Positions 5,850 to 59,714 of a DNA stretch of 64,000 nt are shown here, one piece after another. Position 1 is the stretch's first letter, and the number at the start of each line of letters is the position of its first letter. The position numbers and the translations under genes are program-made. The DNA is taken from contig DCDG01000018.1 of assembly GCA_002316315.1 (NCBI GenBank), forward strand, positions 56,074 to 120,073, given 5' to 3'. The stretch comes from Candidatus Aminicenantes bacterium UBA1061. Lineage in GTDB: Bacteria > Acidobacteriota > Aminicenantia > Aminicenantales > Saccharicenantaceae. The notes under the pieces were generated by a model that was not told where the DNA came from, made no database searches, and saw only the letters and a program-made list of their open reading frames with translations.

Positions 5850-5893
5850 TGTTACCCCCGTAAAAAAATAATCCAGCCCGCAGACTGGTAATT

Positions 5894-31119: not shown

Positions 31120-32376
31120 ATGAGCTGGTGGGAAGATGAATTCTTACAGGTCAAACAAAACAAACTTTATCTAGGAAATCTTCTGGCTGAACAACTGGCA
31201 AAAAGATACGGCACTCCTCTTTATGTTTACAGCCTGAAAAAGGTTTCCGCCAATTTTAAAAAACTGAGACAGGTTTTTGAGCCGCCTCCACCGGGAATCG
31301 AAGTCAAAATCGCTTACGCCCTGAAAGCTAATTCACATCCAGCCTTTCTAAAGACTCTTTTTAAAGAAGGCGCTTCGATTGATGCCGTTTCTCCAGCGGA
31401 AGTAGAAAAGGCTATCAAGGCCGGTTTCCCTCAAGACAGGATCATATTTACCGGCACTTCTCTCAGTCAGGAAGATTTCGAGCTTATCCTGGCCTATCCA
31501 GCAGTGACGGTAAATATTGATGCTTTTGAGCAGATAGATCTCCTGGAGGCGGCCAGAAAACGTCGGCGGATTAAAAGCCCGGTTAGAGTCTCGGTACGTT
31601 GGAATCCAGGGCTCGGTCGGGGCTTCTCCAGCAAGACCATCACTGCTGGAGAAAGGAGTTCCGATGGAACTCCGATTAAATTCGGGGTTGAAGATTCAAG
31701 GATCCTTGAAACCTTTGAAAAACTCCGTGCTCTAAACCTTCTGCCAGTCGGTCTTCACCAGCACCTTGGCTCTGGCTGGGCTGAAGAAGACTTTCCAATA
31801 GCGGTTAAAGCCGTTGACCGGATGATAAAAAAAGCCAGGGAACTAAAGAGGGCCGATTTTAATTTAGAATTTCTGGATTTTGGTGGTGGCTTCGGGCCTA
31901 AATACCATCCAGACCAAAGGCTTTTTCCGCTGGCAGAATATGCCGCTTATATTATTGATAAGGTGGAAAATTCCAGGCTGGGCTTAAAAGCCATCATCGT
32001 TGAGCCGGGGAAATATCTGGTGGCAGAAGCCGGGGTCTTACTGGTCAGGGTTGAATACCTGAAAAAAAACTATGGCCATCTTTTTGCCTGCGTCAATGCC
32101 GGCACCTATAACACCGTGCCGCGGGCAGTGATCTATGAAGAAGCCTATCATGAAATCGTTAATGCCAGTCAGGTTGATAGCCCCAGGAAAAACAAAATAA
32201 CTGTGGCCGGTCATCTGTGCGAAACAGGCGACGTTTTTGGCGTGGAACGGCTCCTGCCCTGTCCGGAAAGGGGACAAATTCTGGCCGTCTTAATGGCCGG
32301 TGCCTATTGCCGTAGTATGGCTTCCAATTTTAACCTGCGTGATATTCCACAAGAAATTCTGCTGGGCAGCTTGTAA
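31120..32376 (+). CDS. PLP-dependent decarboxylase, fold-type III (diaminopimelate decarboxylase LysA-like)
   Basis: AYALKANS contains the PLP lysine. GGGFG, EPGKYLVAEAG and CETGD motifs are present. 418 aa. Confidence 0.65.
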   Translation: MSWWEDEFLQVKQNKLYLGNLLAEQLAKRYGTPLYVYSLKKVSANFKKLRQVFEPPPPGIEVKIAYALKANSHPAFLKTLFKEGASIDAVSPAEVEKAIKAGFPQDRIIFTGTSLSQEDFELILAYPAVTVNIDAFEQIDLLEAARKRRRIKSPVRVSVRWNPGLGRGFSSKTITAGERSSDGTPIKFGVEDSRILETFEKLRALNLLPVGLHQHLGSGWAEEDFPIAVKAVDRMIKKARELKRADFNLEFLDFGGGFGPKYHPDQRLFPLAEYAAYIIDKVENSRLGLKAIIVEPGKYLVAEAGVLLVRVEYLKKNYGHLFACVNAGTYNTVPRAVIYEEAYHEIVNASQVDSPRKNKITVAGHLCETGDVFGVERLLPCPERGQILAVLMAGAYCRSMASNFNLRDIPQEILLGSL

Positions 32377-36641: not shown

Positions 36642-36791
36642 TAACTTTCTCCTTTCTGATGGTTATTTTCTTGACGAGGTCTGAATATGGTTCGTCTTTT
36701 ATTATTACTATAATAATAATGAAACGACTTATTTTCATCGCTGTCAAATATTTTGTGCCACAAGATTAATACACTATATTTTCTCTTTCGG

Positions 36792-37045
36792 TTTAAAAAA
36801 TCCAGAAAAGGCGCAGTTTATAAGACGGGGACAGCCATCAGACTGAAGCCGCACTTCAGCCCGAAGAAAGCACACCGGCGGCGAACCAAAAGCAAGAGCC
36901 TTCCTCTGGCCAACACCTTTGAGCTACCTGATCTCGCCTTCAAAAAGATAAAAATAAGTCAGCCCTTTGGCTGTCCTGATTTCCCGGGCATCTACTACCC
37001 GCACAGCCAGCTCGACCACTTGTCCGGCAATTCCCTGAGGTGAGC
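36792..37045 (-). repeat. Copy B of the dnaE2 3' terminus (about 250 bp; reading frame kept except for one stop)
   Basis: About 88-90% nucleotide identity to 52653-52920. Minus-strand translation gives ...GQVVELAVRVVDAREIRTAKGLTYFY..., matching the DnaE2 C-terminus. Confidence 0.8.
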
Positions 37046-37124
37046 GATTGGGAGAAGCGGCCTTCAGCTTAGAGCTAATGGTAAGCTATCTCCTGGGCCG
37101 TTCAGCATCTTTTTAGCCTCTAAC

Positions 37125-38339
37125 TTATTGATTATGAATGATATCCGCTGGCCCGACCCCATTTATCGAATAAACATTCAACTTGTCAGCTGTATTGGAA
37201 AGACAGATCCGGCTAAGCTGCTTCATGACCTCAAGATCATAATTTTCAATATAAGCTATATATAGCCTGCCATCCATTATCTGAGCCAGATTGTATCTGA
37301 TAAAATTGAAATAACAGGCCTGGCCGAGCTGGCTAAAATTCAGATCGTAGACATCTACAATGTATCTCTTTTTATCATCACGCTGGCCAGTCCAGACATA
37401 TATTTTCCCATCATCAATGTTCAGGCCAAAAATTGCCGGAAAATAGCGTGAGGGCCCTTTTAGTTCCTGTAAGATACGTTCAGAATTTGGGAAACGGATG
37501 ATCTTCATGTCATTGTCAAAGACATTAAAATCCTGCTCCGTAATGAGTTCCTTCTTTATTTTCTTCCCTTTAAAGGTTTTAACCAGCTTTCCATCTTTAG
37601 AATACTTATAAACCAGATAGTCAAAACTATCAGTTATATAAATATTCCCGGCTTCATCCAGAGCAAAATCTGGGATAAAGGTGGCAATGGAGCTCCCATG
37701 GCCTTCTTTTTGTTCGTAAATTAATTGGCTATGATTTCTCTGGCTATCGTATTTATAGATTAATATCTTCTTCTCCTCATTCCCGCCTAAAAGATAAAGA
37801 TTCCCTTCGCGGTCAAAACTAATTTTGTCAATGAATAAACCAGATAGGTTTGCTGGAAGACGTAGTTCATTTTTAAAATGGCCATCCGCTGTAAATATTT
37901 CCAGAGGCCGCCCAAAACTTGAGCTTACCCAGATATCGCCCTGGGGATCAACTGCCAGACAGCCGATGGCTTGAAATTCACCCGGGCCCTGACCCTTTCT
38001 ACCAAAGGAGAATAAGAAATTCCCATTTTTATCATAGGCATCTATTTGCTCACCTCTCACTTTATCCCAGGCGAAAATAAGACCGTTTTCAACGGCGAAA
38101 TAACCAATCCAGGTATAATAATGACCGGATCCCTCATCGCCGATGGTAAAAAGGGGCTGGCTCGAGGCAGCTAATGACCTTATCTCTGCTTTCTGACTGG
38201 AACAACCAGCAGCCAAAAGTAAAGCCATAAAGAAAATGATTATCTCAGGTATAATGGCTAAACTTTTTTCCCGACACCAGGCGCACAAATCAAGCAGTCT
38301 ATGACCAGGTCTGAAAGTATCGGAAATTAGTTCAATCAT
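37125..38339 (-). CDS. NHL-repeat / 6-bladed beta-propeller lipoprotein, paralog 1 (start probably the internal Met at about 38228, giving MALLLAAGCSS)
   Basis: Carries the GRKGQGPGEF signature followed by ...D..G.IWV..., which is NHL-like. Has a lipobox. It is one of 7 paralogs in this window. Confidence 0.7.
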   Translation of the reverse strand: MIELISDTFRPGHRLLDLCAWCREKSLAIIPEIIIFFMALLLAAGCSSQKAEIRSLAASSQPLFTIGDEGSGHYYTWIGYFAVENGLIFAWDKVRGEQIDAYDKNGNFLFSFGRKGQGPGEFQAIGCLAVDPQGDIWVSSSFGRPLEIFTADGHFKNELRLPANLSGLFIDKISFDREGNLYLLGGNEEKKILIYKYDSQRNHSQLIYEQKEGHGSSIATFIPDFALDEAGNIYITDSFDYLVYKYSKDGKLVKTFKGKKIKKELITEQDFNVFDNDMKIIRFPNSERILQELKGPSRYFPAIFGLNIDDGKIYVWTGQRDDKKRYIVDVYDLNFSQLGQACYFNFIRYNLAQIMDGRLYIAYIENYDLEVMKQLSRICLSNTADKLNVYSINGVGPADIIHNQ

Positions 38340-38517
38340 CAGCTGCTCTCCTATTTAGCTTCAGTTTAAAGAAATGAAACCTTTCCTTTTTAGCCTTGAA
38401 AAGATTATAACAATTTCTCTAGCAATAATTAAAGAGTTTCTGACGGTTTCATTGAAAATTGAAAAGTGAATTGATTATAAACGACATGTGCTGGTCTGAC
38501 CCCATTTAGAGGGACTT

Positions 38518-39645
38518 TTAATCAGGGATCTTCCAGCGGGCAGCCAGGCATTTAGCGCTCTGCGGGGCATTTTTCGGGTCATCAACCTGGTAATAAAGGG
38601 TGACAATCTGCCCCCTATCCACTTCAACCGAGCTTGGATACCCGCAGTCAGTATTTGGTGCTGAGGCGGAAATTATAATCTTTTTATCCCACTCCCAGGT
38701 TTTCCCGCCGTCCCGGCTGAAGATAGCCCGAACTCCCATCGGCGCATTACGCTCCCCATAGCTCAAGAGAGTCTGTCCATTTTTGAGCTGTATAAGATCT
38801 GCCGGATGCTCCATGTCCTGGGTTATCTGGAAGGGCGGCGACCAGTGCTTACCCCCATCTTCAGAACGGCTCACAGCTAAATGCCCGCCTTTCTCCGAGC
38901 GCATAGCCGCCAGTAAACTGCCATCGGGGAGGGCCAGCACAGCTGTTTCATTAAAATGCTCACCAACAAGAGAAGGCTCTCCCCAGGTTTTCCCGCCGTC
39001 TTTTGAACGAAAGACGTAGCTTTGATTTCCGCGGTCGTCAAAAAAATCAAAATAGACTGCCATGATAACTGTGCCATCCTCGAGCTGGATAATCTTTCCA
39101 TAAGGCGAGACGGCCCCGCGGCCAGCATAAAATGAATGAATCTCCAGGCTCAGTTCAGGTTTCGTCCAGGTTTTTCCCTTGTCTTTTGAACGGATGACAT
39201 AAACGCCATCGAAAACCCATTTCGAGACGTCTTCAGGAAGTCTTTGCCCGTCAGCCTCATATCCGCTGAGGACAGCATAGGCCAGAAGAATTGTGCCATC
39301 AGCCAGTTGACCAAGTGCCGGGTTACGGTCGTCTTCTGGACCGTCAACAACCGTCCAGGGTTTGGACCAGGTTCGGCCGCCATCATCAGATATGACCAGA
39401 TCAAGGCGCCCGGCCCGGCTAAGGTGAGCGCCGCCACCCCTGATAACAGCCAGAATTTCGCCAGTTGATAGCTTGACCGCCACTGGAAAATAGCCTCCTC
39501 CTTCGACTGCCGTCACCTGATCCATTGAAGTGAAGGCCGCCATGCTGATACAACACATCAGTCCGGTGAGACTCAGAACCGCCAGCCACCGCCGGCCCCA
39601 CCTGTTATTCTTCTTGCTCTTCATTTCCTTTATTTCTTTTATCAT
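38518..39645 (-). CDS. BNR/Asp-box repeat protein (sialidase-superfamily beta-propeller), secreted
   Basis: Five S-x-D-x-G-x-T-W Asp-box motifs (SDDGGRTW, SKDKGKTW, SKDGGKTW, SEDGGKHW, SRDGGKTW). The N-terminus has RR followed by a hydrophobic stretch, which may be a Tat signal. Confidence 0.7.
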   Translation of the reverse strand: MIKEIKEMKSKKNNRWGRRWLAVLSLTGLMCCISMAAFTSMDQVTAVEGGGYFPVAVKLSTGEILAVIRGGGAHLSRAGRLDLVISDDGGRTWSKPWTVVDGPEDDRNPALGQLADGTILLAYAVLSGYEADGQRLPEDVSKWVFDGVYVIRSKDKGKTWTKPELSLEIHSFYAGRGAVSPYGKIIQLEDGTVIMAVYFDFFDDRGNQSYVFRSKDGGKTWGEPSLVGEHFNETAVLALPDGSLLAAMRSEKGGHLAVSRSEDGGKHWSPPFQITQDMEHPADLIQLKNGQTLLSYGERNAPMGVRAIFSRDGGKTWEWDKKIIISASAPNTDCGYPSSVEVDRGQIVTLYYQVDDPKNAPQSAKCLAARWKIPD

Positions 39646-39901: not shown

Positions 39902-40200
39902 TTCAAAAATGAACTTATTAGGGTGATAAAAAAGTGTGAAGGAAGGCGCAGTTTATAAGGCGGGGGCAGCTGTCAGACTGAAGCCGCACTTCAGCCCGAA
40001 GAAAGCACACCGGAGGTGAGCTAAAAGCCAGGGCCTTCTTCTGACCTACGCCCTCAACCTGCCCGCTCTCATCTTCGAAAAGACAAAAATAAGTCAAGCC
40101 GCGCGATGTTCTGATTTCCCGGGTATCCATTACCGGGATAGCTAGCTCGGTCATCTGACGGCACAATTCCTTGAGATGTTCGATCCGCAGCGGCGGACAC
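39902..40200 (-). repeat. Copy C of the dnaE2 3' terminus (about 300 bp; ORF 39918-40217 intact)
   Basis: Encodes ...REIRTSRGLTYFCLFEDESGQVEGVGQKKALAFSSPPVCFLRAEVRLQSDSCPRLINCAFL, which is 85-90% identical to the DnaE2 C-terminus. Confidence 0.8.
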
Positions 40201-40353
40201 CAGCGAGCCCTAAGCAAACTGCTAGCTATCCTACGCCGACTTATTTTTCTTTAAGCCATTATCTTATTGATTATTAACAAATTGTGTTAGCCCAACCCGC
40301 ATTTAAATATATAAGCTCCTCCCCTACAGCACAGGGGCCGGCACCAGCAATTG

Positions 40354-41526
40354 TTATTTCTTCCAGGTAGCCTGATAACAGCAAATATACTGATAACCTT
40401 CTTCGTCCTTCTCAATAGTGTATATTTTGCCGTTTTTTGCAAGAAAGGCTTGGCCTGTCATCTCACAGCGCGCGATAAGCTTCCCTTCAGCACTGAAGAT
40501 ATCCACCAAATAAGAATCCTTAGCCTTACCTTTCTCATAAGTCCTGACATAGAGCCGGTTCTCCTCATCAACAAAGAAACCAGAGAAAGCAGGATAGTTA
40601 GCCGGAAAAACTACCATCTCTTTCAAATTCATTCCCGGTGTCTCCGGTATCTGCTTGAGCATTTCTTCTTTATCTTTCTGACTTATAGACTGCGGTCGAT
40701 ATTCTTTTCGCACTATTTTGACCAGCTGGCCTTCCGGATTGAAATATTTAATTTCATAAGAGGAACTACGGCCATAAATAATATTTCCACTTCCATCCAG
40801 GCAATAATCATAAGTGATCGTAAAGGGATTAATCTTGCCGCCACCCAGGGGCGAAGCCATTAGCAGCGTATCAATTTTAAAAAGCTGGTTAAAATCAGCA
40901 TCATATTTAGCAATAGTATAGGCTATCGAATTCCCTTCCATCCCCATTTCGCAACCTACATATTGACCGCCGCTGTCAATTACTTCCAACATAGCCAGTT
41001 TCTTAGCGTAAGAAACTTCTCTCGTCATCTTACCTTCAAGGTCGGAATAAATCAGTTTTCGGTTACCACTATCATTTATCATCAGTTCGCGGTCAGATAA
41101 GAGCTGGAGTCCAGACGGAGCGTTCCACTCGCCCGGGCCCTGGCCTTCTTGGCCAAATTCTTTTAGCTTTTTGCCATTTGGATCGAAGACATTGACCTTT
41201 TTTGCCTTAAAATCCAGAACAAAAATCCGGCCGTCAGCCGCAACATCGGCTCCAGCTACAACCCCGAAGGCGCTTCCTCCTTGTTCCAGCTTTCCGATGG
41301 TAATTTCTTTGGTTAAAATCAATCTCTGAGAGCCAGAAGGTTTAGCTTTATTCTCGATTATCTGGACATCAGCTTTATCAGCCAGCCTGATAACGGCCTT
41401 ATCTGCTACGGAAAAAGCCGATACAGAAAAAACTGAAATCATGGCTACAAGGAAAACTGGCACATACATAAACGATCTGTGTGTAAATTCTTTTTTTCTC
41501 ATCTTCCTCCCCTTGCTTATCAACAT
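40354..41526 (-). CDS. NHL-repeat / 6-bladed beta-propeller secreted protein, paralog 2
   Basis: Signature GQEGQGPGEW, signal peptide, 390 aa. Confidence 0.7.
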   Translation of the reverse strand: MLISKGRKMRKKEFTHRSFMYVPVFLVAMISVFSVSAFSVADKAVIRLADKADVQIIENKAKPSGSQRLILTKEITIGKLEQGGSAFGVVAGADVAADGRIFVLDFKAKKVNVFDPNGKKLKEFGQEGQGPGEWNAPSGLQLLSDRELMINDSGNRKLIYSDLEGKMTREVSYAKKLAMLEVIDSGGQYVGCEMGMEGNSIAYTIAKYDADFNQLFKIDTLLMASPLGGGKINPFTITYDYCLDGSGNIIYGRSSSYEIKYFNPEGQLVKIVRKEYRPQSISQKDKEEMLKQIPETPGMNLKEMVVFPANYPAFSGFFVDEENRLYVRTYEKGKAKDSYLVDIFSAEGKLIARCEMTGQAFLAKNGKIYTIEKDEEGYQYICCYQATWKK

Positions 41527-42531: not shown

Positions 42532-42905
42532 TTATGTCCCTCAAAAATTTATTTTCCTCTCTATTTATCCAGAGGCAATTCTCCATCCCGATTGATAAGG
42601 CTTTTTTTAATTGCTCTTCGGGAGCACTCAGAGATACCCTGGTTCCAGTTTCAGAAGGGCTATACCAGATTCTCGCCCTTAGTTGCTGGAATGCTCGTTC
42701 GAATGCCAATTTTTCCCCTCGCCGTCTTTAAATATCAGTCAAAAAAAGATGCATGTCAAATACAGACCTTATTCAGGCTAGCACATAATATCCAGGGCAG
42801 ACCGAGAAGTAGAGAGGGTTGTCCACAAGGTGTTTGGCGGCTTGCAACCCTGGACGGCGGAGCAGAGGCGCAGAGATCAAAAGTTCTATAGTTTAAAAGC
42901 AAGAC

Positions 42906-42968
42906 TTCCCCTCTTAAAAGTGTTATTGAAGCTTTTAAAGGAAGGGAAGTGAGCCCCTGGGTGTCATA
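42906..42968 (+). mobile_element. Solo fragment matching the 5' end/RBS region of the IS481-like element at 50406-50468 (inverted orientation)
   Basis: About 60 bp (CCCTCTTAAAAGTGTTATTGAAGCTTTTAAAGGAAGGGAAGTGAGCCCC) are about 85% identical to the reverse complement of 50406-50468. Confidence 0.45.
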
Positions 42969-43064
42969 GTATAAGTTTACAAATAACTCAGTATATACAT
43001 ATATACCATAATTACGATGAGCTTTTAAATGAGTCGGCAGGGTTAGCTAGAAGAGCAGTAAGGT

Positions 43065-43318
43065 TTAAAAGCTATGGAGAAAGGCACAGTTTATAAGGCG
43101 GGGGTAGCCGTCAGACTGAAGCCGCACTTCCCCTCTAAGAAAGCACACCGGAGGCGAGCCAAAAGCCAGAGCCTTCCTCTGCCCCACGCCCTCAACCTGC
43201 CCGCTTTCATCTTCAAAAAGATAAAAATAAGTCAGGCCGCGCGACGTTCTGATTTCCCGGGCATCTACTACCCGGACAGCCAGCTCAACCACCTGTCCGG
43301 CAATTCCCTGAGGTGAGC
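43065..43318 (-). repeat. Copy D of the dnaE2 3' terminus (ORF 43065-43292 intact)
   Basis: Encodes MVELAVRVVDAREIRTSRGLTYFYLFEDESGQVEGVGQRKALAFGSPPVCFLRGEVRLQSDGYPRLINCAFL. About 90% nucleotide identity to the dnaE2 3' end. Confidence 0.8.
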
Positions 43319-43438
43319 GATTGGGAGAAGCGGCCTTCAGCTTAGAGCTAATGGTAAGCTATCTCCTGGGCCGTTCAGCATCTTTTTAGCCTCTAACTTA
43401 TTGATTATGAATGATATCCGCTGGCCCGACCCCATTTA

Positions 43439-43716
43439 GATGGCAGGTTGAAAGATAACCCGGCAGCCAGATCTTTTGACCTTCACCTTGATTTCATGAT
43501 ACTTGCCGTCCCAGCTTTCCGGAACAGGATAACCAAGAACGTAATAGGCACCGGTCAGAGTCTCAATTTTCTCAATATGGTCGGGAGCAGCATAGATTGT
43601 CCCGGTGTACTGACCTCCAGTCTTCCAGGCTATCTCTCGAAGAGAAACGGTTCCCCTTGGATGAATAGATTCCTGAATTATTAGATATGTATTATCTTCC
43701 GTATCAACCGGAAAGC
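43439..43716 (-). pseudogene. Fragment (about 280 bp) of a VWA-like gene paralog, homologous to 47237-47516
   Basis: About 88% nucleotide identity to the C-terminal coding part of the 46807-48468 gene. No start codon, and it is fused directly to other repeat fragments. Confidence 0.65.
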
Positions 43717-46806: not shown

Positions 46807-48468
46807 TCAATTTTTATCAGGCCCGGGGATGATGACAGAAGCTGCCGCCACAGCTGACTTGCCTGTCTCCATATTCCTTATGACCAGCCGGCACTTGTAA
46901 GTTCCTGGTTTAGCTGAAAGTTCACTCTGAATGGAGAGAGGTTTCTGGCGATACTCAGGTTTCGTTAGATCAAGCTCAATACGCCGGCTGTCAACTATCT
47001 GATCAAGCTGGTCAAAGAGAAGACTGACTGCTTCCACTCTCGGACCGACAACTTCCCCCAGCTCCTCCAACCGAAGCCTCGCTATGATCTGAATATTATT
47101 GGGTGGCGCAGGCGATTTAACCTGAGCCTCCATATCAAACCGTAACGGTTCGCCAGAGAGTGGCCTGGGTGAAAGAGCCACATCGACCAGGTGAATTTTT
47201 TTCTCCAGCTCTGAAAAGGAAGAAAATGGCTTCTGATTGAAATAGCCAGGTTGAAAGATAACCCGACAGCCAGGTCTTTTAACCTTCACCTTGATTTCAT
47301 GATACTTGCCGTCCCAGCTTTCCGGAACAGGATAACCAAGAACGTAATAGGCAGCGGTTAGAGTCTCAATTTTCTCAATGTGGTCGGGAGCAGCATAGAT
47401 TGTCCCGGTGTACTGACCTCCAGTCTTCGAAGCCATCTCTCTCAAGGAAGGTATTCCCTTTGCGGTCTCAGGGTACTCCAAATAGAAATTATCTTCAGTA
47501 TCAACGGGAAAGACTGAGGCATTAGCATCAGCTAACTGACGGCAGAGCTGTTCATATTCCCGGCCGAGATGAGCATTGCCATTATCAACATAGGCACCGC
47601 GACCTATATAGGCCGGGTGGATGCCGTTAGAATAAAGAAGAATGATTTTCTTCCCCTGAATATAACGCAGGGCCTGGGCGAGAGACTGCATTGACCAGAT
47701 AAAGTTAGAAGATACGATCTTGCCCGCCATTACATCATTGGACATCCGCCCAGGGCCCGAGCGTGAATATGAATCATAAGCAGCTCCGGAAGTTGCGATC
47801 TGGAATTGCGAATCAAAGAAGCGGCTCGGAGCCAGTGGCATAATATCTTTAGCCTGAATAGACTCAATCGCCCGTCGTGCTCCTTCCCGGTCACGGTCAG
47901 GCTGATGCAGAACATTGAGAACGCGGCCACCAGAAAAAGTTAAAACCCCAACCAGCATGTCCGGCTCAAGCTCTTTCTCAAGAGAGCGAAGCGCTGCCTC
48001 CCGGGCTAATTTAAATCCTCCCTGATCAGTAAACACTAAATCAAATAAATAGAGGAAGATGCGGTTTAGAAGAGGTTGCGGGGCCGGTACCTTCTCTTCT
48101 GGCTTATTTTCGACGACAGGCTCGGGTCCTTTCTTTTCAGCCGGGAGAGACATGGTGTGATTCTCAAACTCGGTCAGCAGCTTCTCCTTACCATTATCAT
48201 AAAGAATAAAGTCTTCTTTGCTCAGGTCAGTCACCGGCTGGCCTTTATCATCAGTCACCATGACATAGATGAGCTTTCTGATGACACTGACCTGGTATTG
48301 CTGGTTATCCCTGACCTTTTCCTGCCCTTGCCCCATGTTTGGCAGCAAGGAAACGAAAACGCCAACAACCAGGAAGGCCACAAGAATAATTACGATCAGC
48401 GAGCTTGAACGCCTATTCCCGGCCGAAGCTTTCCCTCTTGATAAAGCCCTGAAGACCTCAAGCTTCAT
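46807..48468 (-). CDS. Membrane-anchored VWA-like protein (resembles the VWFA-related Acidobacterial-type domain family)
   Basis: N-terminal transmembrane segment. A beta-sandwich N-domain (VMVTDDKGQPVTDLSKEDFILYDNGKEK) is followed by a VWA-like region (LVGVLTFSGG...). 553 aa. Confidence 0.45.
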   Translation of the reverse strand: MKLEVFRALSRGKASAGNRRSSSLIVIILVAFLVVGVFVSLLPNMGQGQEKVRDNQQYQVSVIRKLIYVMVTDDKGQPVTDLSKEDFILYDNGKEKLLTEFENHTMSLPAEKKGPEPVVENKPEEKVPAPQPLLNRIFLYLFDLVFTDQGGFKLAREAALRSLEKELEPDMLVGVLTFSGGRVLNVLHQPDRDREGARRAIESIQAKDIMPLAPSRFFDSQFQIATSGAAYDSYSRSGPGRMSNDVMAGKIVSSNFIWSMQSLAQALRYIQGKKIILLYSNGIHPAYIGRGAYVDNGNAHLGREYEQLCRQLADANASVFPVDTEDNFYLEYPETAKGIPSLREMASKTGGQYTGTIYAAPDHIEKIETLTAAYYVLGYPVPESWDGKYHEIKVKVKRPGCRVIFQPGYFNQKPFSSFSELEKKIHLVDVALSPRPLSGEPLRFDMEAQVKSPAPPNNIQIIARLRLEELGEVVGPRVEAVSLLFDQLDQIVDSRRIELDLTKPEYRQKPLSIQSELSAKPGTYKCRLVIRNMETGKSAVAAASVIIPGPDKN

Positions 48469-49911: not shown

Positions 49912-50030
49912 ACCATCTTCTCTTCTGAACTCCATTGTCTAAGCTTCATCCTGACACCTCCTTACTCAGTATAATCTCTATCTCTTTGAGGTGTCCACCT
50001 CCTCAGGGGGTCAGTATAACCTCTTATACT
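49912..50030 (-). mobile_element. Solo left-end remnant of the IS3-family element (inverted repeat, 5' UTR and first ~12 codons of orfA)
   Basis: About 90% identical to 59950-60070. The reverse complement begins ATGAAGCTTAGACAATGGAGTTCAGAAG, encoding MKLRQWSSE as in orfA at 59993. Confidence 0.7.
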
Positions 50031-50409
50031 TAGCACTGAGCTTGTAACGTTTAAGCACATAGCGGACAGTAGAAGGCTTAACCTCAACTCCCCGTTCGCG
50101 AAGTATCCTGGCCACCCGGTCTCGGCCAAAGCCAGTCTTCTTCCTCTCGGCTATGATCAGAGCTTCCACCGCCGCTGACGTTCTCCGAGGCGAGCGTTTT
50201 GGCCTTCGAGACAGCGGCTTCAGCCCAGCCTCTCCTCTCTCCTCCCACCGCCTTACTACCTTCCTCACTGTCTTGCGAGTCGTTCTAAACACCCTGGCTA
50301 CTTCTGAGATATTCCCACTCTCCTCATAGGCCTTAATCACTGCCTTCCTGGCGAATTCCACTGACCCCTTGAAAAGCTCACAGTAACTGAGGTATAAAGA
50401 TTCTGTCAC
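50011..50409 (-). CDS. IS481-family transposase N-terminal (HTH) fragment; the DDE integrase domain is missing
   Basis: The pattern ...GLKPLSRRPKRSPRRTS...STVRYVLKRYKL is typical of IS481-type transposase N-termini. The ORF stops after 132 aa, and its last codons run into the IS3 end remnant. Confidence 0.5.
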   Translation of the reverse strand: MTESLYLSYCELFKGSVEFARKAVIKAYEESGNISEVARVFRTTRKTVRKVVRRWEERGEAGLKPLSRRPKRSPRRTSAAVEALIIAERKKTGFGRDRVARILRERGVEVKPSTVRYVLKRYKLSAKYKRLY

Positions 50410-50575
50410 TCGGGGCTCACCTCCTTTCTTTTAAGAGTTTCAATAACACTTTTAATGGAGGGAGCCCTGCTTTTTCAAGTACCAAGCTCATAAATCTCCG
50501 GCCTTCTTCTATCCCTGTCCCTACTGCCGGCTCTCCAGCACGTCGCGACCAAAGCTCCTTACTCCTCCATCCTCC

Positions 50576-50617
50576 CTGGATACTATGTCTTAACCTGAAT
50601 GAGAAAAAGACTTGACA
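50576..50617 (+). promoter_or_regulatory. Second copy of the conserved promoter-like motif, upstream of the small peptide/NHL paralog 5
   Basis: TGGATACTATGTCTTAACCTGAATGAGAAAAAGACTTGACAG versus TGGATATGATTTACTGATCTGAATGAGAAAAACCATTGACAA. Confidence 0.4.
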
Positions 50618-50960: not shown

Positions 50961-52055
50961 ATGAGGAAAATAGGATTAAAAGGTTTACTAACATTTGTCA
51001 TTTATCTTCAGATGGTGAGTATCTGCTTCTCGCAACTAGTAAAATTAGATAAAAAAATACCGATAGAAGAAAACGCACTTATTGTCTCTGGCTCTTTTGC
51101 CCTGTTACCGAATGGAACTTTCATTTTTACCGATATTAGAGATGAGAATAACCAGATTAAAATTATCAATGACAAGGGGAAGATAATAAAAGCCTGGGGT
51201 AAAATGGGACCAGGACCAGATGAGTTCAGTGGTCTGGCAGAAATCGATTATCAGAATCCTTACTTAGCCATTATGGATGCAGGCAAAAGATGCATTCATA
51301 TTTTTGAGACAGACCTCGATAAATTCAGAAAAATAGGAGACATCCTCGCCTGGGAGGCAACAGATTTTATTAAATTATATGATAAAAGCGTTTTAATGGG
51401 CGGGTATATCACTTCGCCGAAAGGAAAGGGCTACATAGTATTCGCGAGAGATTTTAATGGAGGTAATACGCAATATATTCTTCCCTTTGAATATAAATAT
51501 GGAGAGCGTTCCTTAAGTGAACATCAAAAGACCAGAGAAGAAGTTTCAGGTATATCATCTAGAGATTATGCTGACATTTATGAAGATGACCTCTTTTATA
51601 TAAGCGATGTGAGAGTCAGGGTGATTAAGACCAATCTCAAGACCAAAAAGATAGAAATCCTCGGGAAAGATCCAAAGAATTTCAGAGCGCTGGTGATGGA
51701 TAAGAAAACCAGGAACGAATTACTGCAACCGCAAACTGGCAAGGGGAAAATGCAAGAGATTTTAAATAAATTTTCTTTTGTAACTCGTATTTTTGTTGAC
51801 AAAGACTATTTTGGCCTGATCTTTTTGAACCGGGAAAAAAAGGTCGGCAATGAACTCTATTTTGTGGCCTATGTTCAAATTTATGATCACTCTGGAAAGG
51901 TGTTGTATGAAGGTCAGCTGGAAGACTTTTATACTGAAGAGAAGATTTCTCCACTTGTTTATCAAAAAGGGACAGGCTGCTTGTATTTGCTTGGTATGAC
52001 CAGCAGTGAACTCGGCGTAAAATATGTGATTTATAAATATCAGATTAAATTATGA
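50961..52055 (+). CDS. NHL-repeat / 6-bladed beta-propeller secreted protein, paralog 5
   Basis: Signature GKMGPGPDEF, signal peptide, 364 aa. Confidence 0.65.
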   Translation: MRKIGLKGLLTFVIYLQMVSICFSQLVKLDKKIPIEENALIVSGSFALLPNGTFIFTDIRDENNQIKIINDKGKIIKAWGKMGPGPDEFSGLAEIDYQNPYLAIMDAGKRCIHIFETDLDKFRKIGDILAWEATDFIKLYDKSVLMGGYITSPKGKGYIVFARDFNGGNTQYILPFEYKYGERSLSEHQKTREEVSGISSRDYADIYEDDLFYISDVRVRVIKTNLKTKKIEILGKDPKNFRALVMDKKTRNELLQPQTGKGKMQEILNKFSFVTRIFVDKDYFGLIFLNREKKVGNELYFVAYVQIYDHSGKVLYEGQLEDFYTEEKISPLVYQKGTGCLYLLGMTSSELGVKYVIYKYQIKL

Positions 52056-52550: not shown

Positions 52551-52652
52551 GATGTTAGATAATAAAGATGGTCTTATGATAAGAATCATGATTGTGTGGT
52601 ACTGATTCAATTTCCATTGGATATATAAGATACTTATATTTATTTGACTGAT

Positions 52653-55508
52653 TCAAAAAGTTGATAAGAAGGCACAGTTTATAAGGCGGGGGTAGCTGTC
52701 AGACTGAAGCCGCACTTCAGCCCGAAGAAAGCACACCGGAGGTGAGCCAAAAGCCAGAGCCTTCCTCTGGCCCACACCCTCAACCTGCCCGCTCTCGTCT
52801 TCAAAGAGATAAAAATAAGTCAAGCCCTTGGCTGTTCTGATTTCCCGGGCATCTACTACCCGCACAGCCAGTTCGACCACCTGACCGGATAATTCCCTGA
52901 GGTGAGCAACTCGCAGCGGCGGCCGCCGGCCATTCAGTAGCTCCAGCGGGTCGCCAGCCGGCAGGAAGCCCAGTTTTTCCAGCTGAAGTTTTTTCTTCTC
53001 CTCATCATTGATGTCTGCTACCTCGACTTCGGAGACACCATGAAAATAGTGCAGAACCTGCTGGCTGCGGTTTGGTTCAAGCGAATCAAGAGCTCCAGCC
53101 TGGATTAGAGCCAGCAGGTCGCTCTGGCCTGGTTTTACCCGTCCGAGGAAGTCTTCCACCGACAAATAGACGCCATCTCTCTCCCGCTCGTTGATGATTT
53201 TTTCTAGGCTCCTGGCGGTTAGATTTTTAATGGAACCAAGGCCAACTCTAATCGCCTTCCCTTCGACCTCAAAGCGATAACCGCTGCGGTTGACATCCGG
53301 GCCAAGGATCGTTAAGCCCAGCCTCTTAGCTTCCTCAATGTATTCCGGAAGCTGGTAGTAACCACCGGCCGCATTAAGCACAGCCACCATATAGACCAGA
53401 GGATAATGAGCTTTAAGATAAACGGCTTCATAAGCCATGAGGGCATAAGAGGCGCTATGAGCCCGGTTAAAAGAATAGGCCGAAAATTTTTCCATCTTCT
53501 GCCACAGCTCCTGAATCTCAGCCTGAGCATAGCCGCGGCTTTCGGCCCGGTCAAAGAATTTCCGGCGCAAAGCCTCATCCACCCGGCGCTTTTTTAGCTG
53601 ACGGCGCAAAAGTTCTCCTTCTTCCGGCGGGAAACCAGCCACCCTTTCTGCCACCTGCATCACCTGCTCTTCATAAAACATCAGGCCGCCGGTTTCGGGG
53701 AGAATCTTAGCCAGCAGCGGGTCTGAAGGAGAAGCCCTCCCCTCGCGTCGCCTCAGAAAGGCTTCTTTCATCCCGCTTTCAGTCGGACCAGGTCTGATTA
53801 AAGCCAGAGCATGGATTAAATCGTCCAGGTTTTCCGGCTTCATCCGGCGGAGGAGATTCATCATGGCCGGGCTTTCCACCTGAAAGCAGCCAATTGTTTT
53901 CGCTTCGCGGAGAAGAGTAAAAGTCTGGCGGTCAGCAGGCGGAAGATACTCAAGATGAAGAGTTTTTCTGGTCTCGGCTATAGCTGTCAGCCCGCGGGTA
54001 GAAAGGAGGTCAAGCTTAATAAGCTGGAGTTCTTCCACCGTGTCCCGGTCATAATGGCACATGAGGAGTCCTTTGGCTGATTTTTCAAGCGGCAGGTAGC
54101 GGTCAACTGGCGCCGGGGTCAAAATTACACCCCCAACATGGAGGGAAATCTCGGCGAAAACACCGTCCAGCTCAGAAGCCAGTTTCCAGATGTCCAGGCA
54201 GCCGGCCTGAGGCGGCATCTGCCGCAAATAATCAGGCTCGGCGAACATCGGCACCCGCTTGCTCATCGTCCTGGCTTCTTCCGGCGAGATGCCAAAAGCC
54301 CGGGCAGTTTCATAAAGGGCCGAGCGCGCCCGGTAATTCTTCAGGCTGCAGACATAAGCTGCACCGGTTTCTCCTGTCCCGTAACGTTTGAGTACATACT
54401 CCAGGACTTCATCCCGGCGGCTCGAGTCAAAGTCAAGGTCAAAGTCAGGTGGATCAGGCCGGCCGCGGTTTAAAAAGCGTTCAAAATAAAGGCCATACTC
54501 CACCGGATTAAGACGGGAAATGCCCAGAAGATAGGCCAGATAGGAAGAAGCTCCCGAGCCACGGAGATTGTGGTAGATGCCCTGGCGGCGGGCAAATTCC
54601 ACCACGTCACAAACAACAAGAAAATAAGGGGCAAAACCGCTCTCTTCAACCACCTGAAGCTCACGCACCGCCCGGGCCCTTTCTTCCCAGCTGAGATTTT
54701 TCAGCCTGGATAACCGGTCATTAATCACCTGACGCAGGGAAACAGGGAAAAGATCAGGCGGAAGAGGCGGAACAATATTTTTAAAAGAGAAATCTATTTT
54801 TTCGATAAGCTCCTGGTGGCGGCGAAAAATTGGTTTGACCCGGTCGCCATATTTTTTTAAAGCAATTTTTTCCTGCTCCGGGCCAAAATTTCTGAGGACC
54901 GGCGAAAGCCTTTTAAGTTCGGGCGGATAAGGAATTTTTTTCTCTATCGTCCGAAGGAGGACCAGGCGCGGCGCACTGGTCAGAAATTTCAGCGGCTCAG
55001 TCCAGAGAAGAGGAAACCCTGTTTTCGCTGAGAGCCACTCGCCGCCAGGCAGGTTGTTAAGACCGCAGCCAAGATAAAGATCATCCGGTGCCCGCTCCCC
55101 AATCTGGCGAATAAAACTCACCCACTCTTCGAGTTCCACTTCGGACACAGGCAGCTTTTCCGGCAGGATAAAAATGGTAGCGAGTCCATCCGGTTCCAGA
55201 AACTCCCGGCGATTAAAAATCTCAAGCAACCGGTGATAGCCCTTTTTCTCTTTGATGAGAAAAACATAGCGGCTGCCCCTTATGGGAAAATCCAGTTCAA
55301 GCTCGCAGCCAAAGACTGGCTTAAAGCCGCGCCCCTCGCTCAGGGCCTGCCACTTACCCCAGCCATAAAAAGCAGCCACATCGGTCAGGGCAGCTGCCGG
55401 GAGGCGATTTCTCTCTGCAAATTGCACGAGTTCTTCCAGGGTCAGGCTGCCTTCTCCCCGGCTAAAGGTTGAATGAACTCTTAAAGGGATAAACATTTTT
55501 GGACTCAC
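52653..55508 (-). CDS. dnaE2: Error-prone DNA polymerase III alpha-like (DnaE2/ImuC-type)
   Basis: 951 aa with a PHP N-terminal domain, a Pol III alpha core and a C-terminal OB region. It is the last gene of a lexA-dinB-dnaE operon and overlaps dinB by 4 bp. Confidence 0.65.
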   Translation of the reverse strand: MSPKMFIPLRVHSTFSRGEGSLTLEELVQFAERNRLPAAALTDVAAFYGWGKWQALSEGRGFKPVFGCELELDFPIRGSRYVFLIKEKKGYHRLLEIFNRREFLEPDGLATIFILPEKLPVSEVELEEWVSFIRQIGERAPDDLYLGCGLNNLPGGEWLSAKTGFPLLWTEPLKFLTSAPRLVLLRTIEKKIPYPPELKRLSPVLRNFGPEQEKIALKKYGDRVKPIFRRHQELIEKIDFSFKNIVPPLPPDLFPVSLRQVINDRLSRLKNLSWEERARAVRELQVVEESGFAPYFLVVCDVVEFARRQGIYHNLRGSGASSYLAYLLGISRLNPVEYGLYFERFLNRGRPDPPDFDLDFDSSRRDEVLEYVLKRYGTGETGAAYVCSLKNYRARSALYETARAFGISPEEARTMSKRVPMFAEPDYLRQMPPQAGCLDIWKLASELDGVFAEISLHVGGVILTPAPVDRYLPLEKSAKGLLMCHYDRDTVEELQLIKLDLLSTRGLTAIAETRKTLHLEYLPPADRQTFTLLREAKTIGCFQVESPAMMNLLRRMKPENLDDLIHALALIRPGPTESGMKEAFLRRREGRASPSDPLLAKILPETGGLMFYEEQVMQVAERVAGFPPEEGELLRRQLKKRRVDEALRRKFFDRAESRGYAQAEIQELWQKMEKFSAYSFNRAHSASYALMAYEAVYLKAHYPLVYMVAVLNAAGGYYQLPEYIEEAKRLGLTILGPDVNRSGYRFEVEGKAIRVGLGSIKNLTARSLEKIINERERDGVYLSVEDFLGRVKPGQSDLLALIQAGALDSLEPNRSQQVLHYFHGVSEVEVADINDEEKKKLQLEKLGFLPAGDPLELLNGRRPPLRVAHLRELSGQVVELAVRVVDAREIRTAKGLTYFYLFEDESGQVEGVGQRKALAFGSPPVCFLRAEVRLQSDSYPRLINCAFLSTF

Positions 55509-56764
55509 CTGGTAAGAGAAGCAGTTTTCAGGATAAAGCCGCGGCCTTTATCTTCCTGATAAACCTCACCCAGCATTTTTTCCCGGCCGGTTAGAACCGC
55601 AGTAAAGCCGTATCTCTCACGCACCCGGTCAAGAGCCTGAGAGAGGCGTTCATCTTTTTCCTGGTAAAACTCAAAAAGAGAAAGATGGCGCTCCTCGACC
55701 AGCCGGCTGCCTTTAACCCCGACTAGACGAAGAGCCAGGCGCGATTTATCCCACAGGTCCAAAAACAATTCCTCCGCCGCGCGGTAAATCCGGTTCATCT
55801 CCTGGACCGGCATGGACAGAAACCGGCGTTTGCTGACTGTCTTAAAATCCGAGTAGCGGGCTTTAACCTCAATCACCTGGGCATAAAATTTTTCCTGCCG
55901 TAAGGCGAGGGCCAGCCGGTCAGAAAGATAAGCTAAATGAGCCAGCAGGAGATCCCGGTCCCAGACATCCTGAAGAAAGGTAGTCTCCCGGGAGAAAGAT
56001 TCGGACTTCCCCCGGGTTTGAAGCGGACGGTAATCTATGCCCCGGGAGAGAAGATAAAGTTCATCGCCCATCACGCCGAACAAAGAACGCAGGGTGGCCA
56101 GCGGCAGCCGCCAGAGATCAGCTATTTTATGGACATTGAGCAGCCGGAGCATCACCTGGGCTTTAGGGCCAATACCTGGAATGGCGGAAATATCCAGCTC
56201 GCGCAAAAATTCTTCTTCCTCACCCGGCTGAAGCTCAAAGAAACCGCCCGGCTTGGCTCGCCTGGTGGCCAATTTGGCTAAGATTTTGTTGGAAGCCGCC
56301 CCAACCGAAACGCTCAGACCAACTTCCCTCTCTACCCGGCGTTTTATGTCCTTGGCCACCTCTGTAAAAGAAGAATATAGCTGACCGCAGCGGGTAAACT
56401 CTAAGTAGGCCTCATCCAGCGAAGCTTCTTCCACATCAGGTGTATAGTCATGGAGAATCTGGAAGAATTTCTCAGAAAAAGACTGATAGAGATGATAATT
56501 ACCCCGGACAAAAATCGCCTGAGGGCATAGTTTATAACACTCGCGAAGAGGCATACCGGAATGAACGCCATATTTGCGGGCCTCATAGGAGCAAGTAGCG
56601 GCTACCCCTCTTTCGTGCGGCAGGCCACCGACCACCAGCGGTTTACCCTTGAGGGAAGGATTGAGCAGCGCCTCCACCGAGGCAAAAAAAGCGTCGAGGT
56701 CAATATGGACGATATAACGCCTTTTTTGACAGTTGGAAAACTGAGCACCTGGTAACCGCATCAT
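55505..56764 (-). CDS. dinB: Y-family DNA polymerase (DinB/Pol IV-like; sits in the ImuB position of the cassette)
   Basis: HIDLDAFFASVE and SLDEAYLE retain the catalytic Asp/Glu residues of Pol IV. SVGAASNKILAKLA is also present. Confidence 0.7.
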   Translation of the reverse strand: MMRLPGAQFSNCQKRRYIVHIDLDAFFASVEALLNPSLKGKPLVVGGLPHERGVAATCSYEARKYGVHSGMPLRECYKLCPQAIFVRGNYHLYQSFSEKFFQILHDYTPDVEEASLDEAYLEFTRCGQLYSSFTEVAKDIKRRVEREVGLSVSVGAASNKILAKLATRRAKPGGFFELQPGEEEEFLRELDISAIPGIGPKAQVMLRLLNVHKIADLWRLPLATLRSLFGVMGDELYLLSRGIDYRPLQTRGKSESFSRETTFLQDVWDRDLLLAHLAYLSDRLALALRQEKFYAQVIEVKARYSDFKTVSKRRFLSMPVQEMNRIYRAAEELFLDLWDKSRLALRLVGVKGSRLVEERHLSLFEFYQEKDERLSQALDRVRERYGFTAVLTGREKMLGEVYQEDKGRGFILKTASLTR

Positions 56765-56784: not shown

Positions 56785-57411
56785 TTAATATTTTCGAATC
56801 ACACCGGCTACCCGGCCGATGATCCGGACTTCCTTAACTTCGATCGGCTTAAAGGCCGGATTTTCTGGAACCAGCAGCACCCGGTCTTTTTCCCGGCGAA
56901 GGCGTTTTAGAGTTACTGTGCCATCTTCAAGAAGAGCTACGACCATCTCGCCCGAATTAGCTGTTTCTGCCCTTTCTATGACCACTAAATCACCGTCATC
57001 AATGTAGGCATCAATCATGCTTTTACCGGTCACTTTCAGGCAGAAAAGATTGCCACTTTTCCGCCCGGCGAACCAGGCCGGAACCTCAACGCTCTCGCCC
57101 AGGGTATCAAACATCTCACGCGGGCTACCGGCTGGAACAAGGCCAACTAAGGGAAGGCGCAACTGCTGGACAGCATCCGGCAGATAAGTGAGCCGCAACT
57201 CGCCGCCTTCTCTCCTTAAGTAACCTTTCTTTTCCAGGCTGAGGAGGTGTTTAAAAACAGCCGAGGGGTTGGCGAGGCCGGTCATCTGCCCTATTTCCCT
57301 CACCGTTGGGGCATAGCCATGGTCAAGGATAAAATCCTGGATTTTATCCAGAATTTCCTTCTGCCTTCGAGTCAGTGTCCTTTTAATTCTGTTAACCAAT
57401 TTGTTCACCAT
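56785..57411 (-). CDS. lexA: LexA repressor (S24 peptidase)
   Basis: Winged-helix N-terminus. The C-terminal S24 domain has the Ser-Lys dyad (GKSM ... K). 208 aa, placed directly upstream of dinB and dnaE2. Confidence 0.8.
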   Translation of the reverse strand: MVNKLVNRIKRTLTRRQKEILDKIQDFILDHGYAPTVREIGQMTGLANPSAVFKHLLSLEKKGYLRREGGELRLTYLPDAVQQLRLPLVGLVPAGSPREMFDTLGESVEVPAWFAGRKSGNLFCLKVTGKSMIDAYIDDGDLVVIERAETANSGEMVVALLEDGTVTLKRLRREKDRVLLVPENPAFKPIEVKEVRIIGRVAGVIRKY

Positions 57412-57507: not shown

Positions 57508-57551
57508 CATGGATATGATTTACTGATCTGAATGAGAAAAACCATTGACAA
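57508..57551 (+). promoter_or_regulatory. Conserved promoter-like motif (TGGATA..CTGAATGAGAAAAA..TTGACA) in the divergent lexA/NHL6 intergenic region
   Basis: About 45 bp that are also present at 50576-50617, upstream of the peptide/NHL5 locus. The motif contains a -35-like TTGACA. Confidence 0.4.
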
Positions 57552-57607: not shown

Positions 57608-58681
57608 ATGAAGAAGAAGAGAGTCTTTAAATTTCTGGTCATATTATTTCTCGTGGTATTTATTTACAGTGCCATATCAATACAGAAAGGAGAAGGCCAA
57701 CCTGTAGAAGTACAACAGGTAAGTGTAATCAAAAACATAGGTGAAGGAATTTATGGTCAGAAAATCAAAGACAAGATTAAATTTATAAAAGTTCTTAGCT
57801 TAGGCGCTGAAGCTGATAACGCTCCTGATTATCTTATGTTCGGGAGAAACATCAACGTTGAAATTGATCAGGGGCAAAACCTGTTTGTTCTTGATGAGCA
57901 AAATAGCAGGCTGATGAAATTTGATCAGAATGGTCGATTCCTCTGGAAAGCAAGTAGAAAAGGACAGGGACCTGGAGAAATAGAAGCTCCATTTGGGATG
58001 AAGTTAACAGAGGATGGTGGGATAGCCATAATAGATCAAGGAGGCAAGATCAACTATTTTGATGGAAATGGGAATTTTTTAAAACTGGTTAGAATGGCCA
58101 AAGAAATAAAATCTATAATCTCATTTTCGAAAGGAAAAATATTTGCCAACTTGTTTATACACGGTCAACCAGGTATAACGGCAGCCTGGTTTTCTGAAAA
58201 TGGAGAGCTTATTGATTATTTTCCTGTTGAATATTATTACGGTCCGAAACTATCCGGACGGCTAGCATATGACCTGGGTGCTAAATTCATACTCGGAGGA
58301 GATCAACTTTATTTGAGCCTTCCAGATAAGTATGAAATACAAATCTATTCCTTGAAAGGGCAGTTATTGAGGAGAGTTATCAGAGATGTAAAAATAAGGC
58401 CTCCATTTCTGGAAGAGGGCTACCGATTCGTAGTGAAAGATATATCGGGTCCGGCCCAATTAATTTCCAATGGATTCCTGATTAACGAACTGTCTCTGGA
58501 TGCGTGGACAGAGGCTGGAAAAAAATATATTGATTTTTTTAATAAGGATTTCCAGTTTCTCGGTTCTTATCCTGTTCCCAAAAATGCTTATTTAGCCAGA
58601 GTTGATAAAGACGATAATTTTTATTTTGTCGAGATTGATTCCTGGGTTAAAATAATCAAGTACAAATTAAAAATCGACTGA
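57608..58681 (+). CDS. NHL-repeat / 6-bladed beta-propeller secreted protein, paralog 6
   Basis: Signature SRKGQGPGEI, N-terminal signal or anchor, 357 aa. Confidence 0.7.
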   Translation: MKKKRVFKFLVILFLVVFIYSAISIQKGEGQPVEVQQVSVIKNIGEGIYGQKIKDKIKFIKVLSLGAEADNAPDYLMFGRNINVEIDQGQNLFVLDEQNSRLMKFDQNGRFLWKASRKGQGPGEIEAPFGMKLTEDGGIAIIDQGGKINYFDGNGNFLKLVRMAKEIKSIISFSKGKIFANLFIHGQPGITAAWFSENGELIDYFPVEYYYGPKLSGRLAYDLGAKFILGGDQLYLSLPDKYEIQIYSLKGQLLRRVIRDVKIRPPFLEEGYRFVVKDISGPAQLISNGFLINELSLDAWTEAGKKYIDFFNKDFQFLGSYPVPKNAYLARVDKDDNFYFVEIDSWVKIIKYKLKID

Positions 58682-59692: not shown

Positions 59693-59714
59693 CAGCTCGA
59701 CTACTTCCCCGAGA

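Follow-up and report, generated by a model that had tools for sequence, protein, structure and literature searches.

Some integrative elements insert at the 3' terminus of a protein-coding gene and supply a replacement for the end that they displace, as phage 21 and e14 do in icd and ICESt1/CIME at fda, and in the pilE/pilS system gene conversion takes place between a functional gene and silent partial copies. Here we describe a locus that recalls both, in a stretch of 64,000 nucleotides from Candidatus Aminicenantes bacterium UBA1061 (assembly GCA_002316315.1, contig DCDG01000018.1, positions 56,074 to 120,073 of the forward strand; hereafter the window, with position 1 as its first letter). 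The feature under study, flagged at 43296-43716 in a preliminary description made from the sequence alone, is a displaced 3' end of the polymerase gene dnaE2 joined to a solo copy of a genome-wide repeat and to an internal remnant of a VWFA-domain gene, and it lies in a frequently recombining island.

As with the elements that integrate at 3' ends, the locus contains an intact target gene, cargo and a displaced 3' fragment, and, as in ICESt1/CIME-type accretion, several displaced fragments are stacked in series and empty sites occur in relatives. Unlike those elements, it shows no integrase in the island genes scanned, the limits of its repeats vary between lineages, the repeats themselves are long and very similar (up to 716 bp at 99% identity), and gene conversion is frequent. 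Likewise, it shares with pilE/pilS the presence of partial, promoter-less 3' copies near an expressed gene, with sequence patches shared in all combinations of functional and silent copies; in contrast to that system, there is no evidence of selected or programmed variation of the DnaE2 C-terminus, and the copies are few and decaying.

The repeat at the junction has its nearest described counterparts in the REP/REPIN-RAYT systems (Nunvar 2010; Bertels & Rainey 2011; PMC3116915, PMC3337134), where RAYT stands for REP-associated tyrosine transposase. Here too the repeat is short, dispersed and mostly intergenic, with many solo copies just downstream of genes. It differs from them in its host, Candidatus Saccharicenans (Aminicenantes), and in that the element often supplies the TAA stop codon of the upstream gene.

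Displaced dnaE2 ends and the VWFA remnant

For comparison, a DnaE2 protein search retrieved 21 loci from Candidatus Saccharicenans / Aminicenantes metagenome-assembled genomes; all the comparative data, in which loci carry L numbers, come from metagenome assemblies. In the window, the last ~300 nt of dnaE2 recur three times at lower coordinates, as copies D, C and B, making four copies with the functional end, tail E (Table 1). Reading in the direction of dnaE2, each displaced copy is preceded by a 38-nt motif and a linker of 57-100 nt, which is common to B, C and D. This repeat-linker-tail unit was found behind eight different upstream sequences, and was seen only in the interval between dnaE2 and lysA, so that the "dnaE2 fused to an NHL 3' flank" of the preliminary description is instead a conserved unit. 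Translation in the frame of dnaE2 leaves C open, gives an in-frame stop in B, and reveals frameshifts at the upstream edges of B and D. We also considered the linker as decayed dnaE2 sequence, but local alignment to dnaE2 gave nothing significant.

Table 1. Positions of the genes, tails, repeats and other features discussed in the text (window coordinates, except for L056).
Feature	Coordinates	Strand	Remarks
lysA-like (decarboxylase) gene	31120-32376		Flank of the island
Variable island	32377-52652	.	~20 kb, between the lysA-like gene and dnaE2
Copy B, displaced dnaE2 tail	36790-37062	-	Nearest to the M64-peptidase flank; in-frame stop, 24-nt hyper-divergent patch
Repeat element at B	37120-37166	-	Last 13 codons and stop of NHL1 (37125-38339) run into it
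Solo repeat, inner end truncated	about 38470-38513	-	Directly after the BNR gene (38518-39645), upstream of NHL1
Copy C, displaced dnaE2 tail	39915-40204	-	Most divergent of B, C and D (78-84% to the others); frame open
Degenerate (fourth) repeat element at C	40260-40306	-	Downstream of propeller gene 40354-41526
Copy D, displaced and pseudogenised dnaE2 3' end	43062-43335	-	~Last 90 codons and stop; frameshift at upstream edge
Putative gene-conversion tract, 145 bp	43294-43438	.	First ~42 nt of tail D, linker and repeat element
Linker between tail D and repeat	43336-43392	-	Conserved with the linkers of B, C and relatives
Solo repeat element at D	43393-43441	-	Core 43401-43434, minus strand TGGGGTCGGGCCAGCGGATATCATTCATAATCAA
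VWFA paralog remnant	43439-43716	-	Codons 320-407 of a 553-aa protein
Full-length VWFA-domain gene	46807-48468	-	Paralog of the remnant
Tail E, functional 3' end of dnaE2	52640-52960	-	
dnaE2 (DnaE2-type polymerase)	52653-55508	-	In an operon, downstream of lexA and the Y-family polymerase gene
Y-family polymerase gene	55505-56764		In an operon with lexA and dnaE2
lexA	56785-57411		In an operon with dnaE2
L056, outer repeat copies	5079-5112; 6320-6362	+; -	Bracket the transposase gene
L056, transposase gene	5308-6072	-	

Beyond the repeat at D lies the VWFA remnant, separated from it by 8 nt, CATCTAAA; the same 8 nt stand between the stop codon of an intact VWA gene and the repeat in L001. The remnant (43439-43716) agrees with 47237-47516 at 244 of 280 positions (87%), with a 195-nt core at 95%, and in tblastn it matches residues 320-407 of the 553-aa VWFA protein with 83% amino acid identity. 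Because codons 320-407 of 553 are internal, the fragment is not the C-terminal part that it had been taken for, with an estimated identity of about 88%; the TIGR03436 VWFA domain spans residues 67-410, and the remnant covers the end of this domain. An intact module is kept in L041/L064, in the order dnaE2, VWA, repeat, linker, tail and M64 peptidase. As deduced from this comparison, module D is best read as a decayed unit of the L041/L064 type, which would originally have consisted of a VWA gene, repeat, linker and tail and whose VWA gene would then have lost codons 1-319 and 408-553.

Sequence exchange among the tails

Copies B and D agree at all 145 positions between 37021-37165 and 43294-43438, as first described, and identity is lost at the first base beyond this tract on either side. 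The adjacent dnaE2-derived parts had been estimated to differ by about 10%, but the true figure is ~18%, with 191 of 232 positions identical (82%; 36790-37020 against 43062-43293). At this background divergence, the probability of a mismatch-free run of 145 nt anywhere in the B/D alignment is ~1e-10. The orthologous B copies of L001 and L022/L028 have a common alternative linker with ~13 substitutions, and that of L022/L028 has a variant repeat as well. Copy D of L022, in turn, is identical to that of the window, and a D-like linker is also present in L033. The locus therefore combines a block of identity within diverged paralogs with an unconverted allele in a sister lineage, which is what gene conversion leaves behind. 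On these alignments, the tract is evidently a very recent D-to-B gene conversion in the lineage of the window, and the recent exchange that had been proposed thus finds support in the B alleles surviving in L022/L028 and L001. We assign the direction from D to B because the sister strain retains the unconverted B, while D is unchanged in L022; the lineage of the window would have overwritten the repeat, the linker and the first 42 nt of the tail of B with the sequence of D.

Copy B also shows, at 36935-36960, a cluster of about nine substitutions within 24 nt that produces its in-frame stop and that the B orthologues of L001 and L022 lack. This hyper-divergent patch looks like a micro-conversion or local damage.

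A second pattern appears when the tails are compared with L001, a sister strain whose DnaE2 is 97% identical to that of the window. Between -255 and -105, tail E is 99.5% identical to the functional tail of L001, but this value falls to 80% in the last 75 nt. For copy D the order is inverted: its identity to the same L001 tail is 89% at first and 94.7% in the last 75 nt, against the 80% of the window's own functional tail. This reciprocal pattern fits a single crossover near -105, which would give dnaE2 a new end and push the old one downstream. In a distance tree, functional and displaced tails are interspersed, and all combinations of two dimorphic patches are represented in them; together, the dnaE2 tails form a recombining mosaic pool.

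Tail duplications are also found in relatives, with 716 bp at 99% identity in L004, 314 bp at 97% in L010 and 645 bp at 94% in L015, and the repeat element is absent from these three duplications. The upstream limit of the duplicated tail is at ~-275 to -297 in the clade of the window, at -302 in L004, at ~-311 to -316 in L010 and at -608 in L015; the downstream limits lie anywhere between +3 and +413. The 64 kb contain a single instance of the perfect 12-nt GC palindrome CGGCGGCCGCCG, at 52917-52928 in dnaE2, precisely where the sequence duplicated in B, C and D has its upstream limit.

The dispersed repeat and its transposase-like gene

The motif that precedes each displaced tail had been described as the C-terminus of NHL proteins. 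NHL1 merely reads 13 codons into the element, which also follows VWA, BNR, M64, dnaE2 and housekeeping genes, and the other six DUF5128 proteins end otherwise, which excludes a conserved C-terminus of the propeller family. Its consensus is (T)AAATGGGGTCGGGCCAGC-N11-ATAATCAATAAGNTAG, also written AAATGGGGTCGGGCCAGC-N11-ATAATCAATAAG, and covers ~38-46 nt with a variable centre of 11 nt. Within the window the motif pattern gives 3 matches against 0.00 expected from shuffled sequences, including the copy between the BNR gene and NHL1, which is present as initially described. That the motif might recur beyond the array proved correct: an exact-pattern scan of metagenome contigs found it at 44 loci, and the 84 exact-pattern instances overall fall into 21 left-flank clusters, 17 right-flank clusters and 30 distinct contexts. 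The edges of the repeat are sharp, and similarity stops abruptly on both sides.

All four copies in the island have one orientation. In L001 the repeat is found after NHL1 and after the stop codons of VWA and BNR, and VWA, BNR, NHL1, NHL2, M64 and dnaE2 are each directly followed by a repeat in some strain. The upstream co-directional open reading frame (ORF) stops at the TAA of TAAATGGGG in ~17 of 48 contexts, and the neighbouring genes are ordinary housekeeping ones, for instance those for pyruvate formate-lyase, aldose epimerase and a phosphate transporter. In L074/L073, L005 (4911-4929) and L019 (1781-1798), the repeat, or a degenerate copy of it, begins at the stop of a full-length dnaE2 and gives it its TAA.

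No long ORF runs through the repeat in the frame tested on each strand, and period-3 variation did not separate the two antisense frames. An Rfam search gave no match to the repeat, returning only two tRNAs elsewhere in the window; viral contigs did not contain it, which led us to reject a phage origin; and promoter and terminator scans gave no more sites than shuffled sequences, with none at the repeats. A weak match to the repeat profile (E 0.1) at 12635-12659 on the minus strand, inside an ORF, is probably due to chance.

In five loci (L056, L035, L047, L051 and L071), inverted copies of the repeat lie ~1.28 kb apart around a gene for a 254-aa protein. This protein matches the full NCBIfam profile NF047646, "REP-associated tyrosine transposase", with an E value of 4.6e-18 and 65.5 bits, below the cut-off of 80, and this score and the length of 254 aa are points of difference from the described systems; it also matches Pfam Y1_Tnp with 29-30 bits (cut-off 23) and has an HVH motif, and a sequence search of solved structures gave no match to it. 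At six further loci (L063, L057, L032, L040, L045 and L062) there are inverted doublets of 147-260 nt, which, like those of REPINs, fold into long hairpins (-23.6 kcal/mol in L063, z = -4.0). Neither the doublets nor the inverted copies show target-site duplications, as is also the case in REP/REPIN-RAYT systems. Unlike REPs, single copies have no imperfect palindromic core, folding no better than shuffled sequences (z = +0.77, -1.08 and -0.18), and the unit, at 38-46 nt with its 11-nt variable centre, is longer. No RAYT gene occurs within the window. To judge from these profile matches and arrangements, this genome-wide repeat of Ca. Saccharicenans most likely forms the ends of a family of elements linked to a RAYT-like HUH transposase; since inverted copies surround a transposase-like gene and doublets form hairpins, it behaves like a REP/REPIN-RAYT family, but without the palindromic core of textbook REPs.

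Two other assignments were rejected. The repeat resembles the 38-bp terminal inverted repeats of the Tn3 family (GGGG...TAAG) in its length of ~38 nt, outer GGGG, inner TAAG and use as inverted termini, but here the enclosed gene is a homologue of Y1 HUH transposases, no Tn3 transposase (PF01526) lies between the inverted copies, and the flanks show no duplication, of 5 bp or otherwise. Neither is it an integron attC site, because it has no internal pairing and there is no intI, the neighbours being lexA, the Y-family polymerase gene and dnaE2.

The variable island and its possible origins

Relatives share a backbone order of dnaE2, lysA-like decarboxylase, DUF72 and SerRS genes. The lysA-like gene directly follows dnaE2 in L006, L009, L012 and L014, which thus have an empty site, while L001, L004, L010, L015, L033 and L041 have filled sites, with varied cargo and a displaced tail. 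Cargo consists of VWA, BNR and NHL1 followed by the M64 peptidase gene in L001, includes an outer-membrane beta-barrel gene in L004 and L015, and comprises a subtilase and a beta-barrel gene in L010. The existence of empty and filled sites therefore identifies 32377-52652 as a variable island, and direct repeats of the dnaE2 3' end bracket the inserts, as they do in integrative islands. In the window, the island contains the M64 peptidase gene, insertion sequence (IS) debris and, between the tails, genes for DUF5128/NHL beta-propellers, BNR and VWFA proteins and a C39 peptidase with TPR repeats, most of which start with N-termini resembling signal peptides. An integrase or recombinase domain was not found in the scanned island genes of the window, L001, L004, L010, L015, L033, L037, L039 and L064; likewise, a scan of 70 ORFs from repeat-bearing loci gave no integrase among the best 25 of 118 families.

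The island of L022 is 100% identical to that of the window over 38510-37350, down to ~37350 inside NHL1, whereas its M64/lysA backbone is only 79-86% identical (36656-34425); this contrast indicates a recent transfer between lineages with its endpoint inside NHL1. In L033 the modules themselves recur, but their order and their deletions are different. The start-to-start spacings of copies B, C and D are nearly equal, 3135 and 3138 bp, but this does not result from a recent tandem duplication of modules, because NHL1 and NHL2 are only 25.6% identical.

We also examined L002 as a clean empty site, which is doubtful: its spacer between dnaE2 and M64 holds, at 6098-6252, 156 nt that are 74% similar to window 43900-43746, just upstream of the VWFA remnant. 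L002 may thus have arisen by deletion and not have been empty from the start.

Several other features were observed in and around the island. Between 34 and 64 kb there are seven divergent paralogs of DUF5128/NHL six-bladed propellers with pairwise identities of 21-45%, distributed to either side of the lexA-dinB-dnaE2 operon, and a serpin gene lies at 62264-63556. A conserved 41-nt motif ending in TTGACA (50577-50617 and 57510-57550) lies upstream of two propeller genes on the plus strand, 50961-52055 and 57608-58681, and probably represents a promoter region common to both. An IS3-family element occupies 58844-59993 (orfA 59715-59993, orfB with rve domain 58844-59692), and a solo 113-nt copy of its left-end region (59957-60069), 92% identical, is found inside the island at 49913-50025, adjoining an ORF with only a helix-turn-helix domain (50011-50409). 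Inverted repeats of 63 nt (42895-42957 and 50412-50474; 83% complementary) are separated by 7.4 kb: the first is found ~100 nt past the stop of tail D, and the second abuts the helix-turn-helix ORF. They may be decayed IS ends, or else delimit an inversion or a composite element with module 3 inside it.

We consider it somewhat probable that the flagged segment represents the end, now decayed, of a module in an island that differs between strains and accreted downstream of dnaE2 by homologous recombination on repeated tails. Copies B, C and D would then be former or partner 3' ends of dnaE2. A crossover inside the ~300-bp tails, between the functional one and that of incoming or misaligned DNA, would provide dnaE2 with a new end and leave the previous one downstream of the inserted genes, in the manner of a Campbell-type or unequal homologous crossover. 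Modules could thus be gained, lost and reordered by accretion, deletion and conversion on the repeated dnaE2 tails, which would also undergo gene conversion, the 145-bp identity being one such tract. The mosaic tails, the transfer seen in L022, the module order of L033 and the low identity between NHL1 and NHL2 all fit tail recombination as the main engine and, since the scan of the island genes revealed no integrase, we infer ordinary homologous recombination, with RecA-type recombination as its catalyst.

Some observations weigh against this reading. It leaves the origin of the first tail duplication unexplained; the crossover at ~-105 rests on one sister strain, and later gene conversion could yield the same pattern; contigs often break inside the 145-bp repeat, where L026 and L028-L031 begin or end; and, with the exception of L015, the upstream limits of the tails cluster between ~-275 and -316. 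The broken contigs, together with a run of N at the linker of B in L025, evidently make the 145-bp repeat a real difficulty for assemblers, and could suggest that the junctions or the 145-bp identity arose from chimeric or collapsed metagenome assembly. We regard such an artefact as highly improbable, and an assembly error at junction D as unlikely: the exact C39-TPR protein is present on contigs of many assemblies, and among the 23 longest, which were read, six that come from separate metagenome assemblies, L022-L027, run colinearly with the window between ~47.8 and 36.8 kb at 99-100% identity. At least six independent assemblies thus span junction D, L023 and L024 reproduce both junctions, and a mis-join at D is excluded in L022, because its B copy differs from D and leaves no exact repeat to mislead the assembler. 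Two other independent assemblies, L029 (6382 nt) and L030 (6297 nt), start in the 145-bp copy of D and end in that of B; this 6.27-kb unit could represent a graph break, or tandem or circular forms. The clustered upstream limits, in turn, point to a site-specific crossover core, since random homologous events would not fix a limit, and together with the palindrome they would be compatible with a site-specific origin through an integrase supplied in trans. Integrative elements carrying a replacement tail would then use an attB in the 3' ~300 bp of dnaE2, with B, C and D as attR-side remnants of tandem accretion, the repeat and linker as an attP arm, and the integrase either in trans or lost. 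The direct repetition of the target 3' end around each insert, the known empty sites, the repeated use of the same gene across the genus, upstream limits within ~40 nt in three lineages against downstream limits that vary widely, and the palindrome abutting the limit in the clade of the window would all suit such elements. We nevertheless hold them to be unlikely, because the island genes examined in about ten strains include none for a tyrosine or serine recombinase, the limit in L015 is at -608, the crossover deduced for the newest event lies away from the boundary, and the L004 pair, whose 99% identity extends over 716 bp and continues for 413 bp beyond the stop, is better explained by homology-based duplication than by an attP.

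The repeat could itself have driven the shuffling, with the RAYT-like HUH enzyme cutting single-stranded DNA at the outer edge of the 38-nt repeat, so that segments between direct repeats would be moved or deleted and a gene plus its repeat would act as an integron-style cassette. Flanks indeed diverge exactly at the outer edge, past the conserved (T)AAA, and the shared TAA stops, the common orientation of the four island copies, the repeats directly behind six different genes and the absence of target-site duplications, which HUH enzymes would predict, agree with this idea. Yet we find it improbable: the tail duplications of L004, L010 and L015 have no repeat, the window has no RAYT gene, the endpoint in L022 is inside NHL1 and away from the repeat, there is no direct evidence of excision, and solo copies are considered immobile remnants in REPIN biology (PMC3337134). 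The recombination junctions noted in the preliminary description thus belong to a genuine mosaic, but nothing shows the motif to be a dedicated recombination site for the array. A further reading, which strikes us as very doubtful, would make the dnaE2-lysA interval of Ca. Saccharicenans an integrase-free cassette system, an organised and perhaps stress-coupled gene-capture locus rather than passive debris. In it, the RAYT-associated repeat would mark the stop-codon ends of genes for secreted or envelope proteins, recombination would stack these genes on portable dnaE2 tails, and silent tails would feed sequence into a functional, SOS-regulated gene for an error-prone polymerase. A purely local history, with in-place tandem duplication of a gene-repeat-linker-tail unit whose cargo later diverged or was replaced, and without any imported DNA, would account for the equal spacing of B, C and D and for the position of a propeller gene just ahead of the repeat in both module 1 and module 2. 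It is already disfavoured, and its chances are slight, because NHL1 and NHL2 are so dissimilar at the amino acid level, and BNR and the C39 peptidase are unrelated, although the tails are 78-89% identical at the DNA level; because strains differ in module order; and because the island is 100% shared between backbones that are 14% diverged.

For annotation, our results mean that the three dnaE2-like ORFs are a pseudogene array and that the odd C-terminus of NHL1 is a read-through into the repeat. They also describe a repeat family, associated with a RAYT-like transposase and with units that lack the usual palindrome, in the uncultured Ca. Saccharicenans (Aminicenantes), together with a hotspot at the 3' end of dnaE2 at which genes are recurrently gained and lost throughout the genus, while displaced ends and the live gene keep exchanging sequence. 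As it stands, this is a well-documented case of known processes at a fairly ordinary junction; if a dedicated mechanism were true, be it an integrase in trans or RAYT activity, the locus would be a useful natural system for island accretion.

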